DNA of 30,096 nt from Candidatus Sigynarchaeum calidifontis (lineage in GTDB: Archaea; Asgardarchaeota; Lokiarchaeia; Sigyniarchaeales; Sigyniarchaeaceae): contig JAUQYZ020000261.1 in the NCBI GenBank assembly GCA_030587475.2, positions 1 to 30,096 of the forward strand, in the 5' to 3' direction. Below, one piece after another: positions 1,235-5,585 of the stretch (positions within the stretch are counted from its first letter, which is position 1; the number at the start of each line of letters is the position of its first letter). The translations under genes were made by a program, and so were the position numbers. The notes beneath the pieces were generated by a model that saw only the letters and a list, made by a program, of their open reading frames with translations, was not told where the DNA came from and ran no database searches.

Positions 1235-3415
1235 ATGGACGCCAAGCTATATTTGTACGTCGAAGAGAAGGACTCGTTCACCGAGGTCACGAAGGTCACG
1301 AGCAAGGACGTCGTTTTCATCGTTTTAATGGACGAGCAAAAGGTCATCGTTTGGCAAGGAAAGGAATCGCCCCGAATGCTCCGTTATAAAGGAGGCATGA
1401 AGGTCGCGACGCTCATCAGCACGAAACGGCTCTACAACTTCAAGAGCGAGATCGTGATCGAGGGTGAAGAACCGGCATCGGTGCGGGAACTCATCACGCG
1501 GCACTTTGGGAAGCGCGAGCTATCGCAAGCCGAGATCGCTCGTGACGACCGCTTGCAAGTGGAAGCAAAGGCAAAAGCGATCGCCGAAAAATATTCCCAA
1601 CGTGAGCCCGAGTTGGTTCAACATGCGAGGCCTGCCACGCCCACCCCCGTCGAGAGCCGGGAGCCATCGAAACTAGTGCCGGTTTCCGAAAAAACACTCG
1701 AATCGAAAGAGGATCGCCAGGCTACATCCATCCAGGCAGAATTACGCCGGGTCAACCTCGGTTTGGGACAAAACCTGGCCGCCATGGAAAATATCAGCTT
1801 GGAAAAGAAGCAATACTTGTCCAAGGACGAAAGGGAGGTCCTCGACGAGGCCAGGCGGGAACAGAATCGCTCTGAAAACCTCGCGAGCGTGCAGGAAACC
1901 AAGCTCTGGGATGAGGAGCGGAAACAACTGCTCAGGAATCAGGAAGAGGCGAGGCAGCGAGAGCTCGAGGCTGAGAAGCGACGGAAAGAAGCGGCAGAAC
2001 GCGAGCGAATAGCGAGCGAGAAGCGCTTCATGGAGGAGAAATTGCGGAAGGAAAGAGAAGAGATGGAACGCGAGCGCCGTGTACTCGAGGAGAAATTACG
2101 CGAGGAGGAGCTTGCCAGGAAGAATGCTCAAGAAGCGGCCGAGAAAGCGCGCGAGGCGAGGAAGAAAGACCTGGTAGAATTCGAGGTGCGCAAGATCGAC
2201 CTCAGAATGCAGGTCCGGCGCAAGGGCATCGACTACATCGCCGCGCCCCCGCCCGGTGGATCTCACATCTTGTACCGTATCGAGAAGGGCGTCGCTGTCA
2301 GGATGCAGCCCGAGTACATGACCATGGGAGACGTGTATTTGCTCGACAAGGGGAATAAGGTGTTCGTTTGGAATGGCAAGCTCGCGTCGCTGGACGAGCG
2401 ATTCTTCGGGGACGAGATCGCGAAAATGCTCAAGGAAAAACGCGGCCCCGAGACGGAAATCATCTCCATCGAGCAAGCCAATGAAACGATCGACTTCGTT
2501 TCTAGCTTCGAGTCCTTGTCAATCCTCGATGGGAACTTCGCAGAATCCATCTTGAAGAAGGAGCAAGTGGGAACGTCGAAAGACTTCATATTGTACCGTT
2601 TCAAGACCGAGGGCGGATTGCTATTCATGGAAATGCCAAAATCTCACTCGTCGGTGACCAGCAACGATTCTTTCCTCTTCGATTTCGGCAAGGAGATCAT
2701 CGTTTGGCACGGGAAAGATTCGAACCCAGAGGAACGCCGGCGAAGTGCCGAGATCGCCTCGATGTTCAAGAAGGAGCGGGGCGAGGGCGTCAAGATACAA
2801 GTGGTTAACGAGGGTAGCGAGCCGGCCTACGATCAACTTCCCGCCCCCGTCTGGCCGATCTTGAAGGGGGAGAAACGCGCGGCAGAAATGGCCGACGCAT
2901 ACCACAAGGCCATGAGTGCCCTAGAGGCACAGCGACGCGAGGCTGCCCTCAAGCAGCAACAAGAAGCGGAAGCGAAGCGGCTCCTGGAGGAGAAAAAGGC
3001 CCTCGATGAGACCGAGCGGATCGAGCGGGAGATGCTCCAGAAGGAGATCGAGCGCAAGAAGGCGGAACTCACCCCCCAGCAGATCGAGGCGAAATGGCGC
3101 GAATTCAGGCGCAAGATGCGGGAGCGACGCGGGCTGCCACCAGAAGACGAGACCATCAAGATCGACCTCAAGACCGGCGAGAGCATTGCCGATGCAAAGC
3201 CAGCGGCAGCGCCCGTTCCCGAGGTCGACAAAGCCCAGTTCAAGAAGCAAAAGGAAAAGGAATTCGAGCAACTCAAGCGCATCGAGCTCGAGATGCTCGA
3301 GAAGCGGATCAGCCGGGAGAAACCAGCCGCGGACGTGGAAGCGCGCTGGCGGGCCGACTTGCAAGCAAAGCTGGACGGGCAATGGAAGGAAATTCAGGAG
3401 GAATTCAAGGAATGA
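1235..3415 (+). CDS. Gelsolin/villin-like protein: 3 gelsolin domains plus two long E/R/K-rich helical regions
   Basis: Three gelsolin signatures: VIVWQGKES...IVIEGEEP; GDVYLLDKGNKVFVWNGKLASLDER...IEQANET; NDSFLFDFGKEIIVWHGKDSNPEER...VNEGSEP. Charged helical stretches at about 1820-2170 and 2880-3415. Confidence 0.88.
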   Translation: MDAKLYLYVEEKDSFTEVTKVTSKDVVFIVLMDEQKVIVWQGKESPRMLRYKGGMKVATLISTKRLYNFKSEIVIEGEEPASVRELITRHFGKRELSQAEIARDDRLQVEAKAKAIAEKYSQREPELVQHARPATPTPVESREPSKLVPVSEKTLESKEDRQATSIQAELRRVNLGLGQNLAAMENISLEKKQYLSKDEREVLDEARREQNRSENLASVQETKLWDEERKQLLRNQEEARQRELEAEKRRKEAAERERIASEKRFMEEKLRKEREEMERERRVLEEKLREEELARKNAQEAAEKAREARKKDLVEFEVRKIDLRMQVRRKGIDYIAAPPPGGSHILYRIEKGVAVRMQPEYMTMGDVYLLDKGNKVFVWNGKLASLDERFFGDEIAKMLKEKRGPETEIISIEQANETIDFVSSFESLSILDGNFAESILKKEQVGTSKDFILYRFKTEGGLLFMEMPKSHSSVTSNDSFLFDFGKEIIVWHGKDSNPEERRRSAEIASMFKKERGEGVKIQVVNEGSEPAYDQLPAPVWPILKGEKRAAEMADAYHKAMSALEAQRREAALKQQQEAEAKRLLEEKKALDETERIEREMLQKEIERKKAELTPQQIEAKWREFRRKMRERRGLPPEDETIKIDLKTGESIADAKPAAAPVPEVDKAQFKKQKEKEFEQLKRIELEMLEKRISREKPAADVEARWRADLQAKLDGQWKEIQEEFKE

Positions 3416-3435: not shown

Positions 3436-3447
3436 CTTTTTTTTATT
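3436..3447 (+). terminator. Oligo-T archaeal terminator candidate
   Basis: Run of 8 T about 20 nt after the gelsolin stop codon, between convergent genes. Confidence 0.45.
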
Positions 3448-3465: not shown

Positions 3466-5040
3466 TCATTGATCGATGCAAGCCCAGCACGGGTTGATGG
3501 AATGCACGATGTACGGCATCTTGCGGATCGCGACCTGCCCGGCGACGCGTTCCAGCGCCGTGAAGTTCTGGAAGCTCGGCGTACAGATCCGCAGCGTCGC
3601 GAGCTTGCCTGCTTCCTTCGATGCTTTAACGTACGCGTGCAGCTCGCCCCGGGCGCTTTCCACCACGGCGAAACCTTCGGCCCCGGCGACGAGGTTGCTC
3701 GCGTCAATCCGCGACGCTTCCGAGACGGGTGTTTCTGCAAGCAAGGCGTTGAGCTGGTAGAGCAAGCGCAAGGATTGCACGATCTCGCGCGCGTGGATCT
3801 CGATCCTGGCTTGCACGTCGCCCGTGACACCGGTGCACGTGTCCCAGCGCAAGAAACCTTGCTTGTAAGGGCCATGCGGGAAGTCAACGCGGGTATCGTA
3901 TGGCACGCCACTCGCGCGCAACGCAGGTCCAGTGAGACCGGCCTTCAGCGCTGCGTCCTTGTGGATGATGCCGATGCCGGCGAACGCGTCGAACAAGTAG
4001 TTTTTTTCGAGCGGATCGAGGAGAGCTGATGTGAAATCGTGCTCGTAATCGTGCAGGCACTCCTCGATCGCGGGTCGCGATAATCGACCGGTGGCAACGG
4101 GATCAAACAAGATACCGCCGGGCACGAGGAACGGCGTTCTGGTCGCCTCGTCGAGCAAGTGCTTTTCGATGGCTTCCAAACCGCGAAGTATTGAAGCGTT
4201 TCGCTTCGCAATGGCAAAATGACCGGCAAGTTGCAGCCACGAGATCAAGAACTCGTGGTGGTTCTTGACACGCTCGAGCTCGCAACAAAAAGCACGCCAG
4301 TATGCAGCGTGCTGGGGAATTTTCTCCGCGATGCCGGCCGCGCGTTCTATCGCAATGGCCACGGCCGCGAGGGCGTGCCATTTATCTCGCCAGCATGCGC
4401 GAGCGACGACGGGCGGGAGCTCGGATATTGGCAAGGATTCCGCGAACTTCAGGATACCCCGATGGAAGTGCCCGATCTGGCATCGGTTTGCGAATATAAC
4501 GGTCTTGTCAGTCTTCACCCACGTGTAAGAAAAGAGATCGAGCTTCGGATCGAAGATACCAGGGCCGCCTGGCAACCGGGACTTGTCCACCATGTCATCG
4601 ACCTGGAATTGAACCCACGGAGAACTCGCATCCATTGCAAGTCCGCCATCCTCTCCTTTCGGGGATGCAGCGCGCGGCTGGAAATCGATCGAGAGAAACT
4701 GCGTCTGGTATTTTTCTAGCCATTTTGCGGCCGGAAAAATGCCCGTGATCGAATCGGTTTTTTTGTCCCGCGCATCGATGTCGATCTTGACATACACGCG
4801 CGACCGTAAATGGTTCAAGAAAAGAACATCGATTAGCTCCAAATTACTCCCGGCATCGTTCACGAACTGCGCCACGAAACGTGCATCACAATCGATCGCG
4901 AGAAAATCCAGCAGCTCCAACATTTTTTCCGCCCTGCCGGACACCATGATTTCGTCATCACCCGGGGATTGCACGTTTTTCACGCCGAGGCCGAAGCGTT
5001 CCCCGATAGTATCCTTCAGCATCTGTATGGAGTTGATCAT
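3466..5040 (-). CDS. Group 4 [NiFe]-hydrogenase large subunit-like protein (HycE/NuoCD-type fusion) with atypical L1 motif
   Basis: N-terminal NuoC-like region (SITGIFPAAKWLE), then GHFHRGI, ELERVKNH, GLTGPALRASGVPYDTR, GDVQAR, VESARGE, RICTPSF and C-terminal NPCWAC. Confidence 0.85.
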   Translation of the reverse strand: MINSIQMLKDTIGERFGLGVKNVQSPGDDEIMVSGRAEKMLELLDFLAIDCDARFVAQFVNDAGSNLELIDVLFLNHLRSRVYVKIDIDARDKKTDSITGIFPAAKWLEKYQTQFLSIDFQPRAASPKGEDGGLAMDASSPWVQFQVDDMVDKSRLPGGPGIFDPKLDLFSYTWVKTDKTVIFANRCQIGHFHRGILKFAESLPISELPPVVARACWRDKWHALAAVAIAIERAAGIAEKIPQHAAYWRAFCCELERVKNHHEFLISWLQLAGHFAIAKRNASILRGLEAIEKHLLDEATRTPFLVPGGILFDPVATGRLSRPAIEECLHDYEHDFTSALLDPLEKNYLFDAFAGIGIIHKDAALKAGLTGPALRASGVPYDTRVDFPHGPYKQGFLRWDTCTGVTGDVQARIEIHAREIVQSLRLLYQLNALLAETPVSEASRIDASNLVAGAEGFAVVESARGELHAYVKASKEAGKLATLRICTPSFQNFTALERVAGQVAIRKMPYIVHSINPCWACIDQ

Positions 5041-5071
5041 GATAGGTCACGCGGGATCTTGTCTGTCGCGT

Positions 5072-5111
5072 TTAAATTATGGCGAGTGCCTTAATTAAAT
5101 TAAGGCGAGTG
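5072..5111. promoter_or_regulatory. AT-rich divergent promoter region with a 17-nt direct repeat and a palindrome
   Basis: TTAAATTA(T/A)GGCGAGTG at 5072-5088 and 5095-5111. Perfect inverted repeat GCCTTAATT-A-AATTAAGGC at 5088-5106. Confidence 0.5.
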
Positions 5112-5114
5112 ACC

Positions 5115-5585
5115 TTGAGCAAGAACGCCATCTTCCGAGGAACCTTAGAAGCCTACATACTCCCGCTTGCAGACTGTGGCGGGGGCTGCTACGAGAACCT
5201 TGCGAAAGCCATCGAGCGCTTGCCGATACGACTTGTCAACAATTCGAAACATGCGGATATCGTGTTCATCGCGGGTATCATCACGCACGCCGCAGCAGCC
5301 AGGTTGAAAGAGGAATTCACGGGCTTGTCCAAACCGTGTTTTGTTATAAGGGTCGGTGCTTGCATGGGAAAAGCCAATAAGTCGTTCGAAAACCCCTCGC
5401 AAAACTATGCCGTGAGCGAAACGATAAAGAAATTCTTTCCGGTTCATTCCGCTATCGAAGGTTGCCCGCCACAAGTCGACGAGATCGTGTCGAAGATGGA
5501 AACGTTCATCAATTATCTCGACCTCACGCCAGAAATCTCGAAAACATTGGACGAGAAATTGGACAAGTCGATTTTCACGCCGTGA
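5115..5585 (+). CDS. NuoB/EchC/HycG-like Fe-S small subunit
   Basis: DCGGGCYE, HADIVFIAGII, VGACMG and IEGCPP motifs. Start uncertain (ATG 5079, GTG 5109 or TTG 5115). Confidence 0.85.
   Translation: MSKNAIFRGTLEAYILPLADCGGGCYENLAKAIERLPIRLVNNSKHADIVFIAGIITHAAAARLKEEFTGLSKPCFVIRVGACMGKANKSFENPSQNYAVSETIKKFFPVHSAIEGCPPQVDEIVSKMETFINYLDLTPEISKTLDEKLDKSIFTP

Follow-up and report, generated by a model that had tools for sequence, protein, structure and literature searches.

Asgard actin regulation is now described by three gelsolin layouts, namely ProGel, GelX and 2DGel. We analysed a stretch of 30,096 nt (contig JAUQYZ020000261.1, hereafter the window) from a Sigynarchaeum-like family of the Lokiarchaeia. 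It contained a gelsolin gene (positions 1235–3415, + strand) encoding 726 amino acids (aa) and a TGA stop codon in a single uninterrupted open reading frame (ORF). An in-frame GTG was present at position 1223 (ORF 1223/1235–3415, +); the ATG at 1235 was taken as the start because the N-termini of the homologues all begin with MDAKLY at this codon. The encoded chain consisted, in order, of a first gelsolin-fold domain (Gel1), a variable linker, a charged helix, a tandem pair of gelsolin domains (Gel2–Gel3) and a helical tail. The full-length AlphaFold 2 (AF2) model had a mean predicted local distance difference test (pLDDT) score of 75. The protein belongs to the gelsolin-domain superfamily and has a 2DGel module; it is not a GelX protein. 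Most likely, two known kinds of gelsolin module are joined via a rigid spacer in a lineage-restricted Asgard actin-regulatory protein.

Gelsolin-fold domains

Gel2 (2267–2509, +; aa 345–425), a domain similar to gelsolin G1, and Gel3 (2585–2824, +; aa 451–530) together formed the 2DGel module. The Pfam Gelsolin profile (PF00626) matched two stretches, corresponding to Gel2 and Gel3, with 83 bits against a cut-off of 21 bits. In a phmmer search of PDB sequences, aa 345–531 aligned end to end with 2DGel3 of Thorarchaeota (Thor; 7c2h, E 1.7e-23), followed by Loki 2DGel, villin and gelsolin. Structural comparison with VIA-align gave a Z-score of 14.9 and a root-mean-square deviation (rmsd) of 2.1 over 104 residues for aa 331–467 against gelsolin G1 (2ff3_A), and Z-scores of 13.6–13.9 for the Gel2–Gel3 pair against 2DGels. 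The W-x-G motif of both domains (W379/G381 and W491/G493) was conserved across the family.

In gelsolins, the type II Ca2+ site is formed by the Asp of GDxY and a Glu of the long helix, and the type I site has the signature Asp-x4-Gly-x-Ala. Mapped by sequence alignment to 2DGel3 only, the type II pairs were kept in Gel2 (D366/E388, 16 of 17 members) and in Gel3 (D478/E500, 14 of 15 members) and were lost only in single divergent members, which agrees with the original prediction of Asp/Glu pairs in domains 2 and 3. The type I Asp position of Gel2 was occupied by Lys (K400) in 16 of 17 members. Both the Asp and the Gly of the type I site were kept in Thor 2DGel3, in a Loki-type 2DGel and in the compact 2DGel encoded by the same genome. 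Judging from this alignment, K400 could replace the actin-bridging Ca2+ of the type I site.

The linker between Gel2 and Gel3 contained a conserved WH2-like motif, L440-K-K-E443 (2552–2563, +), which aligned with ILKKVQ of 2DGel3. The role of the WH2-like linker motif in 2DGels has been described (PMC9433394). As in 2DGels, the tandem domains were thus joined by an LKKT-type WH2-like motif; the type I Ca2+ site and the compact layout of 2DGels were missing, the latter due to a 344-aa N-terminal extension with a third gelsolin domain. The module may nevertheless sever or cap, since the LKKE motif and the type II sites are those of severing 2DGels. The original prediction, a Ca2+-regulated cross-linker or spacer in place of a simple severing or capping protein, is therefore supported in part.

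Gel1 (1235–1519, +; aa 1–95) was assigned to the ProGel/GelX type by fold and residue comparison. Searched alone, it remained below the Pfam Gelsolin cut-off and had no Pfam match. Among the N-terminal domains of 14 family members, seven reached E ≤ 10 with Pfam Gelsolin (best 0.0067). A profile built from these 14 N-termini retrieved gelsolin chains at E 4.7e-7 and Thor ProGel (7c2f) at E 0.0019. The AF2 model of aa 1–125 had pLDDT values of 84–90 across Gel1, and its top Foldseek match was ProGel (7c2f_B; probability 1.00, template modelling score 0.78 on the target, rmsd 2.4). Foldseek returned 85 PDB matches at E ≤ 0.001, and the matches listed were all gelsolin-family proteins. With VIA-align, aa 2–88 of the full-length model superposed on ProGel with a Z-score of 13.0 and an rmsd of 1.9 over 84 of 88 residues.

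Gel1 contained W40-x-G42, of which W and G were conserved across the family. D25 was retained, and the position of the type II Glu (L49) was occupied by L, Q, A, W, S or T in the family. Gel1 has the ProGel/GelX type of gelsolin fold without the Ca2+ type II Glu; both the fold and the missing Glu had been anticipated before any search was made. Identity to the GelX-type paralog of the same genome was 28%.

Central rod and helical tail

The distance between Gel1 and the tandem pair was 249 aa (aa 96–344), close to the approximately 250 aa first estimated. It began with a conserved helix (1526–1597, +; aa 98–121), in which A102, D105, R106, K112 and I116 were invariant. This helix was followed by a variable, Pro-rich, disordered linker (1598–1729, +; aa 122–165) with pLDDT values of 29–48, a mean pairwise identity of 25% and many indels. 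In the alignment of the 14 full-length members, gaps occurred in 76 of the 103 columns of the linker preceding the rod. A conserved segment containing L170-R-R-V173 (1730–1822, +; aa 166–196) had a weak predicted helix at aa 166–184 in the AF2 model. The LRRV motif (aa 170–173, nt 1742–1753) was conserved as [LI]-[RK]-[RKQ]-[VM] after the short helix, between the linker and the rod. By eye only, it is similar to the LRRT/LKKV core found in WH2-like motifs.

The central rod (1823–2224, +; aa 197–330) was predicted as one helix of 134 residues, with pLDDT values of up to 93. At 1.5 Å per residue, it would span approximately 20 nm. The core of the rod (aa 225–312) was E/R/K-rich, with 65% E/D/K/R and 15% hydrophobic residues. 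Its home-made i/i+4 salt-bridge score was 9.1 per 32 aa, compared with 3.1 for the regular coiled coil of the GelX-type paralog of the same genome, which served as the only internal control, and 1.3 for the globular part of the protein. The best hydrophobic occupancy of a/d positions was 0.36 in the rod versus 0.61 in the paralog coiled coil, and the rod heptads were accordingly weak. By these scores, the rod is a long E/K/R-rich stretch with dense opposite-charge pairs from i to i+4, as in a single alpha helix (SAH), and the SAH-like rod of the original prediction holds up.

The length of the rod was invariant. Across the 14 full-length members, which were 39–86% identical to the window protein, neither the rod nor the junction contained a single indel. 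A single-file hydrophobic stripe on one face of the rod (I259, M266, L270, M277, L284 and L288) was conserved. The C-terminal end of the rod, FEVRKIDLRMQVRRKG (aa 313–335), had a mean pairwise identity of 76%, compared with 62–66% for the gelsolin domains. Complex prediction with two rod copies (aa 190–345, family alignment) gave a score of 0.00, which argues neither for nor against dimerisation. From its sequence, we regard the rod as an SAH-like helix under a length constraint, whose conserved surfaces may serve as binding sites.

The C-terminus of the protein was a family-specific helical tail (2858–3412, +; aa 542–726) with two helix-turn-helix repeats. Tail core 1 (3005–3142, +; aa 591–636) ended in a basic FRRKMRERRGLP patch, and tail core 2 was located at 3239–3394 (+; aa 669–720). 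The AF2 model placed helices at aa 546–607, 614–631, 666–695 and 699–725, with a disordered variable linker at approximately aa 637–668. The two tail halves aligned as repeats with 33.5 bits, compared with 19.8 ± 2.8 bits in 200 shuffles (maximum 31.2), and shared the signature RIE-x-EML-x-K-x-I-x-R-x-K ... EA-x-WR. Repeat 1 (aa 591–636), with an invariant RRGLP end, was the best-conserved part of the protein, with a mean pairwise identity of 81% against the 62–66% of the gelsolin domains. The tail had been described as a second charged rod. It was indeed helical and charged; it was not one rod, and consisted of a duplicated, conserved helix-turn-helix with a variable linker in between.

The family profile of the tail had no match in Pfam or PDB sequences, and no further copy of the tail was found in its own genome. 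In an index of 5.8 billion proteins, the tail was found only in fragments from the gelsolin-fusion family. Three candidate relationships were rejected. Sigma-factor chains appeared at E 0.8 and were judged to be chance matches. Fold matches of the full model to helical hairpins were generic (Z ≤ 8.3) and uninformative for helices. Alignments of a Loki-type 2DGel reaching query aa 581–641 consisted of acidic low-complexity sequence, and the Loki protein ends in a Zn ribbon.

Family distribution and genomic neighbourhood

A word-index search identified 15 clusters with the same layout. The named members were all hypothetical proteins, assigned to Sigynarchaeum springense, Sigynarchaeota, metagenome-assembled genomes (MAGs) labelled Lokiarchaeota, Promethearchaeota and, in one case, Bathyarchaeota. 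An exhaustive search of 1.84 billion representatives with the N-domain profile returned five clusters at E ≤ 1e-30, all of the gelsolin-fusion family. Two of the five had not been seen in the word-index search, and these had the full architecture at 42% and 39% identity. The next matches (E 1e-11 to 1e-8) were mostly proteins of 437–533 aa with one N-terminal gelsolin domain; two of these were scanned, and both had coiled-coil-like regions downstream. Such gelsolin plus coiled-coil proteins, among them the GelX-type paralog of the same genome, are the nearest relatives of Gel1 outside its own family. A word-index search with aa 1–335 returned no shorter relatives, probably as it was swamped by charged low-complexity words.

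In a set of 400 Asgard genomes, only the family of the window had matches beyond the 2DGel part; elsewhere, only aa ~344–531 were matched. Four copies of the fusion were present in these genomes, of which two were full-length, one was cut by a contig end and one was truncated. The truncated copy (L008, G280:C1:3522940–3526719, ORF 1492–2742) lost homology after approximately aa 226–258 and ran into a membrane-protein gene. Either a genuine truncation or a join made during assembly could explain this. A natural split form was rejected for this copy, since its frame leaves the homology and the remainder was not found in the genome, which is 63% complete.

The genome of the window encoded three other gelsolins. 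A GelX-type paralog of approximately 494 aa (contig C3, L018:289–1866, −) consisted of a gelsolin domain, a Pro/Ala-rich linker and a regular coiled coil of approximately 230 residues. A compact 2DGel of approximately 208 aa (contig C217, L001:1114–1743, +) had an intact type I Asp-x4-Gly and an LKKV linker motif. Its identity to the module of the fusion was 32%, and compact 2DGels including this paralog were equally distant from the fusion module (31–36%). The third, a membrane-anchored protein of 241 aa (contig C42, L020:1057–1782, −), had an N-terminal gelsolin-like domain followed by transmembrane helices. Because these three forms are present beside it, the fusion is, as far as sequence comparison can tell, a further paralog that diverged anciently and did not replace them.

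A small gene encoding a protein with two transmembrane helices (2-TM) was located upstream of the gelsolin gene (763–1125, +), with the profile match beginning at 859. Its position next to the gelsolin gene is conserved, and it may encode a partner. The 2-TM proteins were approximately 85–120 aa long, with conserved L-x-QK, D-x-x-F-x-x-SL and H. The gene was found upstream and on the same strand in seven of seven loci (the window and six others). Among the six further loci, it was directly adjacent to the gelsolin gene in five and approximately 1.1 kb away in one (G282). The upstream order in all seven was GGR-like FAD protein, 2-TM protein and gelsolin fusion, and the intergenic gaps were 89–277 bp. 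In G282, an insertion sequence-like ORF of 209 aa (L007:467–1096), of the TnpB/OrfB type by eye, was present between the two genes. Significant matches to the 2-TM protein were restricted to the four genomes of family f1 among the 154 genomes of the order.

Downstream, a convergent hydrogenase-like gene, Oxidored_q6 and RNase PH were found in three metagenomic loci, down to 39% identity. In the window (3466–5585) and its relatives (L021–L025), synteny with the gelsolin gene extended to the genes for the hydrogenase-like large subunit, Oxidored_q6 and RNase PH. The co-occurrence of the 2-TM gene with the fusion would be expected of a functional pair, and equally of a lineage-specific syntenic block because the genomes are kin.

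Two signals flanked the gelsolin gene, both recognised by resemblance to a consensus only. The archaeal TATA-like element TTTTTTATAA (1154–1163, +) was located approximately 70 nt 5' of the ATG, and a run of eight T (3437–3444, +), resembling an archaeal terminator, started 22 nt 3' of the stop codon. Because of these two signals, the gene looks like a transcription unit of its own.

Proposed function and comparison with known systems

We propose, with about equal chances of being right or wrong, that the fusion protein acts as a Ca2+-modulated, two-ended actin linker with a rigid spacer of approximately 20 nm and a partner-docking tail. By analogy to ProGel and 1DGelX, Gel1 would bind actin independently of Ca2+. 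The 2DGel module would bind, cap or sever in a Ca2+-dependent manner, like the 2DGels of Thor, Loki and Heimdall. The helix would be a mostly monomeric strut of the ER/K type that fixes the two actin-binding ends approximately 20 nm apart. One molecule could thereby bridge two filaments, or tie a capped end to the side of a filament, at a set distance, and Ca2+ would engage or release one end of the linker. The conserved tail would dock a partner, possibly the adjacent 2-TM membrane protein. In favour of this proposal, independent assemblies share the architecture at identities as low as 39%, and the activities of the modules have been published (PMC7444086, PMC9433394).

Several observations weigh against the proposed linker. 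ProGel binds rabbit actin very weakly, with a dissociation constant of approximately 337 µM (PMC7444086), and by analogy Gel1 may therefore not be an autonomous actin-binding site. Actin binding, Ca2+ binding and the oligomeric state are all predictions from the protein sequence. The salt-bridge and heptad scores are our own and not those of a published predictor, and the rod is not a textbook SAH: it has a stripe that is one residue wide, and its sequence is as conserved as that of the globular domains. An interaction surface or weak self-association would account for the stripe and the conservation just as well as a passive strut would. Synteny extends over the entire block from the GGR-like gene to RNase PH, so that the adjacency of the 2-TM gene may reflect only shared ancestry. 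Co-transcription with the 2-TM gene is not implied either, because the gelsolin gene appears to have its own TATA-like element.

The conserved stripe at residues 259–288 on one helix face would also suit a parallel homodimer or higher oligomer, in which the stripe, the tail hairpins or both form a coiled coil or bundle and the protein becomes a four-ended, GelX-like bundler. The a/d occupancy of the tail hairpins is higher than that of the rod (0.45), domain X of 1DGelX is a predicted coiled coil (PMC7444086) and the GelX paralog of the same genome has a clear one. In the rod itself, the single-residue stripe covers only approximately 30 of 134 residues, d positions hold the invariant charged residues E273 and E280, and the 65% charged core has a much lower a/d occupancy than the genuine coiled coil of the same genome. 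We consider oligomerisation unlikely; it is one of the main alternatives, together with a membrane tether and a ruler along the filament side.

A tether between actin and the membrane is compatible with the Ca2+-modulated linker. Here, the tail with its basic FRRKMRERRGLP patch would attach to acidic lipids or to the 2-TM protein and hold the Ca2+-regulated gelsolin modules at the membrane. No other region is as conserved as the tail, which is unique to the family; the 2-TM gene lies upstream on the same strand at every locus, as the next gene except in G282, and its matches are confined to the gelsolin-fusion family within the order. These co-occurrences are not independent, as synteny covers the whole neighbourhood and the genomes are closely related, and the gaps of 89–277 bp and the separate TATA-like element also speak against the tether, which we rate as doubtful.

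An improbable explanation is that the rod lies along F-actin in the manner of tropomyosin or caldesmon, and stabilises the filament, measures it or positions Ca2+-triggered severing. Gel1 and the 2DGel module would then sit approximately seven subunits apart on the same filament (7 × 2.75 nm = 19 nm), and by established F-actin geometry the 20 nm of the rod is arithmetically commensurate with the actin lattice. The strictly conserved length and a sequence unusually conserved for a spacer would be in line with such a ruler, and the extension of 1DGelX has been proposed to bind filament sides (PMC7444086). Against it, Pfam and PDB searches revealed no sequence or profile likeness of the rod to known actin side-binding proteins, and the flexible linker at aa 122–165 makes a fixed register of Gel1 unlikely.

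An erroneous joining of a GelX-type gene and a 2DGel gene by mis-assembly or sequencing error, as might be suspected from the G280 copy that stops matching after approximately aa 226–258, has a negligible chance of being correct. It is contradicted by 14 or more full-length proteins, drawn from independent assemblies and sources, which share the uninterrupted layout at identities as low as 39% and have no indel in the rod or junction.

Returning to the Ca2+-modulated linker, a more far-reaching version would have an ER/K SAH serve as a fixed-length ruler between a constitutive and a Ca2+-gated module, with the tail coupled to a small, dedicated membrane protein. This would constitute a primitive, Ca2+-switchable actin–actin or actin–membrane link, with an origin separate from that of eukaryotic cross-linkers like alpha-actinin, villin and supervillin. 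We regard this version as speculative and probably too ambitious.

The Asgard forms ProGel, 1DGelX (a gelsolin domain with a predicted coiled-coil domain X) and 2DGel were defined by Akil et al. 2020 (PMC7444086), and tailed Loki and Heimdall 2DGels were added by Akil et al. 2022 (PMC9433394). The latter study also contains Helarchaeota '2DGels' with a possible divergent N-terminal gelsolin domain (PMC9433394). The gelsolins of L. ossiferum have been sorted into GelX, 2DGel and single-domain proteins (bioRxiv 10.1101/2025.11.30.690169). The original prediction treated compact one-, two- and six-domain proteins as the main established Asgard forms. This was incomplete, given the published 1DGelX and tailed 2DGels (PMC7444086, PMC9433394), and no characterised six-domain Asgard gelsolin was found in the literature searched. 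Since 1DGelX is a published combination of a gelsolin domain and a predicted coiled coil, a gelsolin domain followed by a helical rod has a precedent. Neither the Gel–rod–2DGel layout nor any Sigynarchaeota gelsolin architecture was found in the literature searched, the coverage of which was incomplete and did not include supplements. Within that literature, the architecture was uncatalogued, as expected, and the Gel–rod–2DGel arrangement is new; its parts were already known. At least one Asgard lineage thus built two such modules into a single chain, on either side of a rigid spacer whose length does not vary, and the fusion family exchanged the actin-bridging type I Ca2+ ligand for Lys. The rod end and the tail repeats provide two highly conserved motifs for partner hunting.

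The module shares with Thor 2DGel and 2DGel3 (7C2G, 7C2H) the tandem domains, the W-x-G motifs, an ILKK-type WH2-like linker and the type II Asp/Glu in both domains, and is approximately 36% identical to Thor-type 2DGels in genomes. Thor 2DGel is compact (approximately 200 aa), whereas the fusion has 344 aa added before the module and a tail of 185 aa after it. Additionally, domain 1 of Thor 2DGel has the type I Asp-x4-Gly, which is Lys-x4-variable in Gel2. The extended Loki and Heimdall 2DGels (7WHG, 7WHF; PMC9433394) likewise combine a 2DGel core with a charged C-terminal extension. The Loki tails consist of an acidic linker and a Cys-rich Zn domain, in contrast to the duplicated helical motif of the fusion tail, and since the fusion protein contains no cysteine at all, it lacks this Zn domain.

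The N-terminal half of the fusion is reminiscent of 1DGelX/GelX proteins (Thor 1DGelX, L. ossiferum B35_GelX), which also have an N-terminal gelsolin domain without Ca2+ sites, a Pro/Ala-rich linker and a long helical region. GelX proteins have no further gelsolin domains, and the GelX rods compared could not be aligned with that of the fusion. The rod of the GelX paralog is a regular heptad coiled coil, whereas the fusion rod is ER/K-rich with weak heptads. Thor ProGel (7C2F), the top structural match of Gel1, also has no type II Glu. Unlike Gel1, it is a stand-alone protein of 92 aa, and the two are 18–19% identical.

ER/K SAH spacers occur, for example, in myosins VI and X and in caldesmon. 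SAH domains are known rigid connectors (PMC5812594). Like them, the fusion rod is predicted to be a long, free-standing E/R/K-rich helix between functional domains. It differs by its hydrophobic stripe and by a sequence conserved beyond composition, and its monomeric state is a prediction.

Eukaryotic gelsolin, villin and CapG, with three or six domains, also have three gelsolin-fold domains per chain, and Gel2 is G1-like. In the eukaryotic proteins, G1–G2–G3 are contiguous. The fusion has no contiguous G1–G2–G3; its additional domain, which is of the ProGel type, lies N-terminally at a distance of 249 aa. The likeness to eukaryotic gelsolins is a convergent domain number, and not a precursor of G1–G3. 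If the fusion protein does link filaments at a set distance in a Ca2+-controlled manner, the eukaryotic spacing cross-linkers would have a prokaryotic counterpart, which would provide a direct handle on the pre-eukaryotic control of cytoskeletal architecture, beyond filament turnover.

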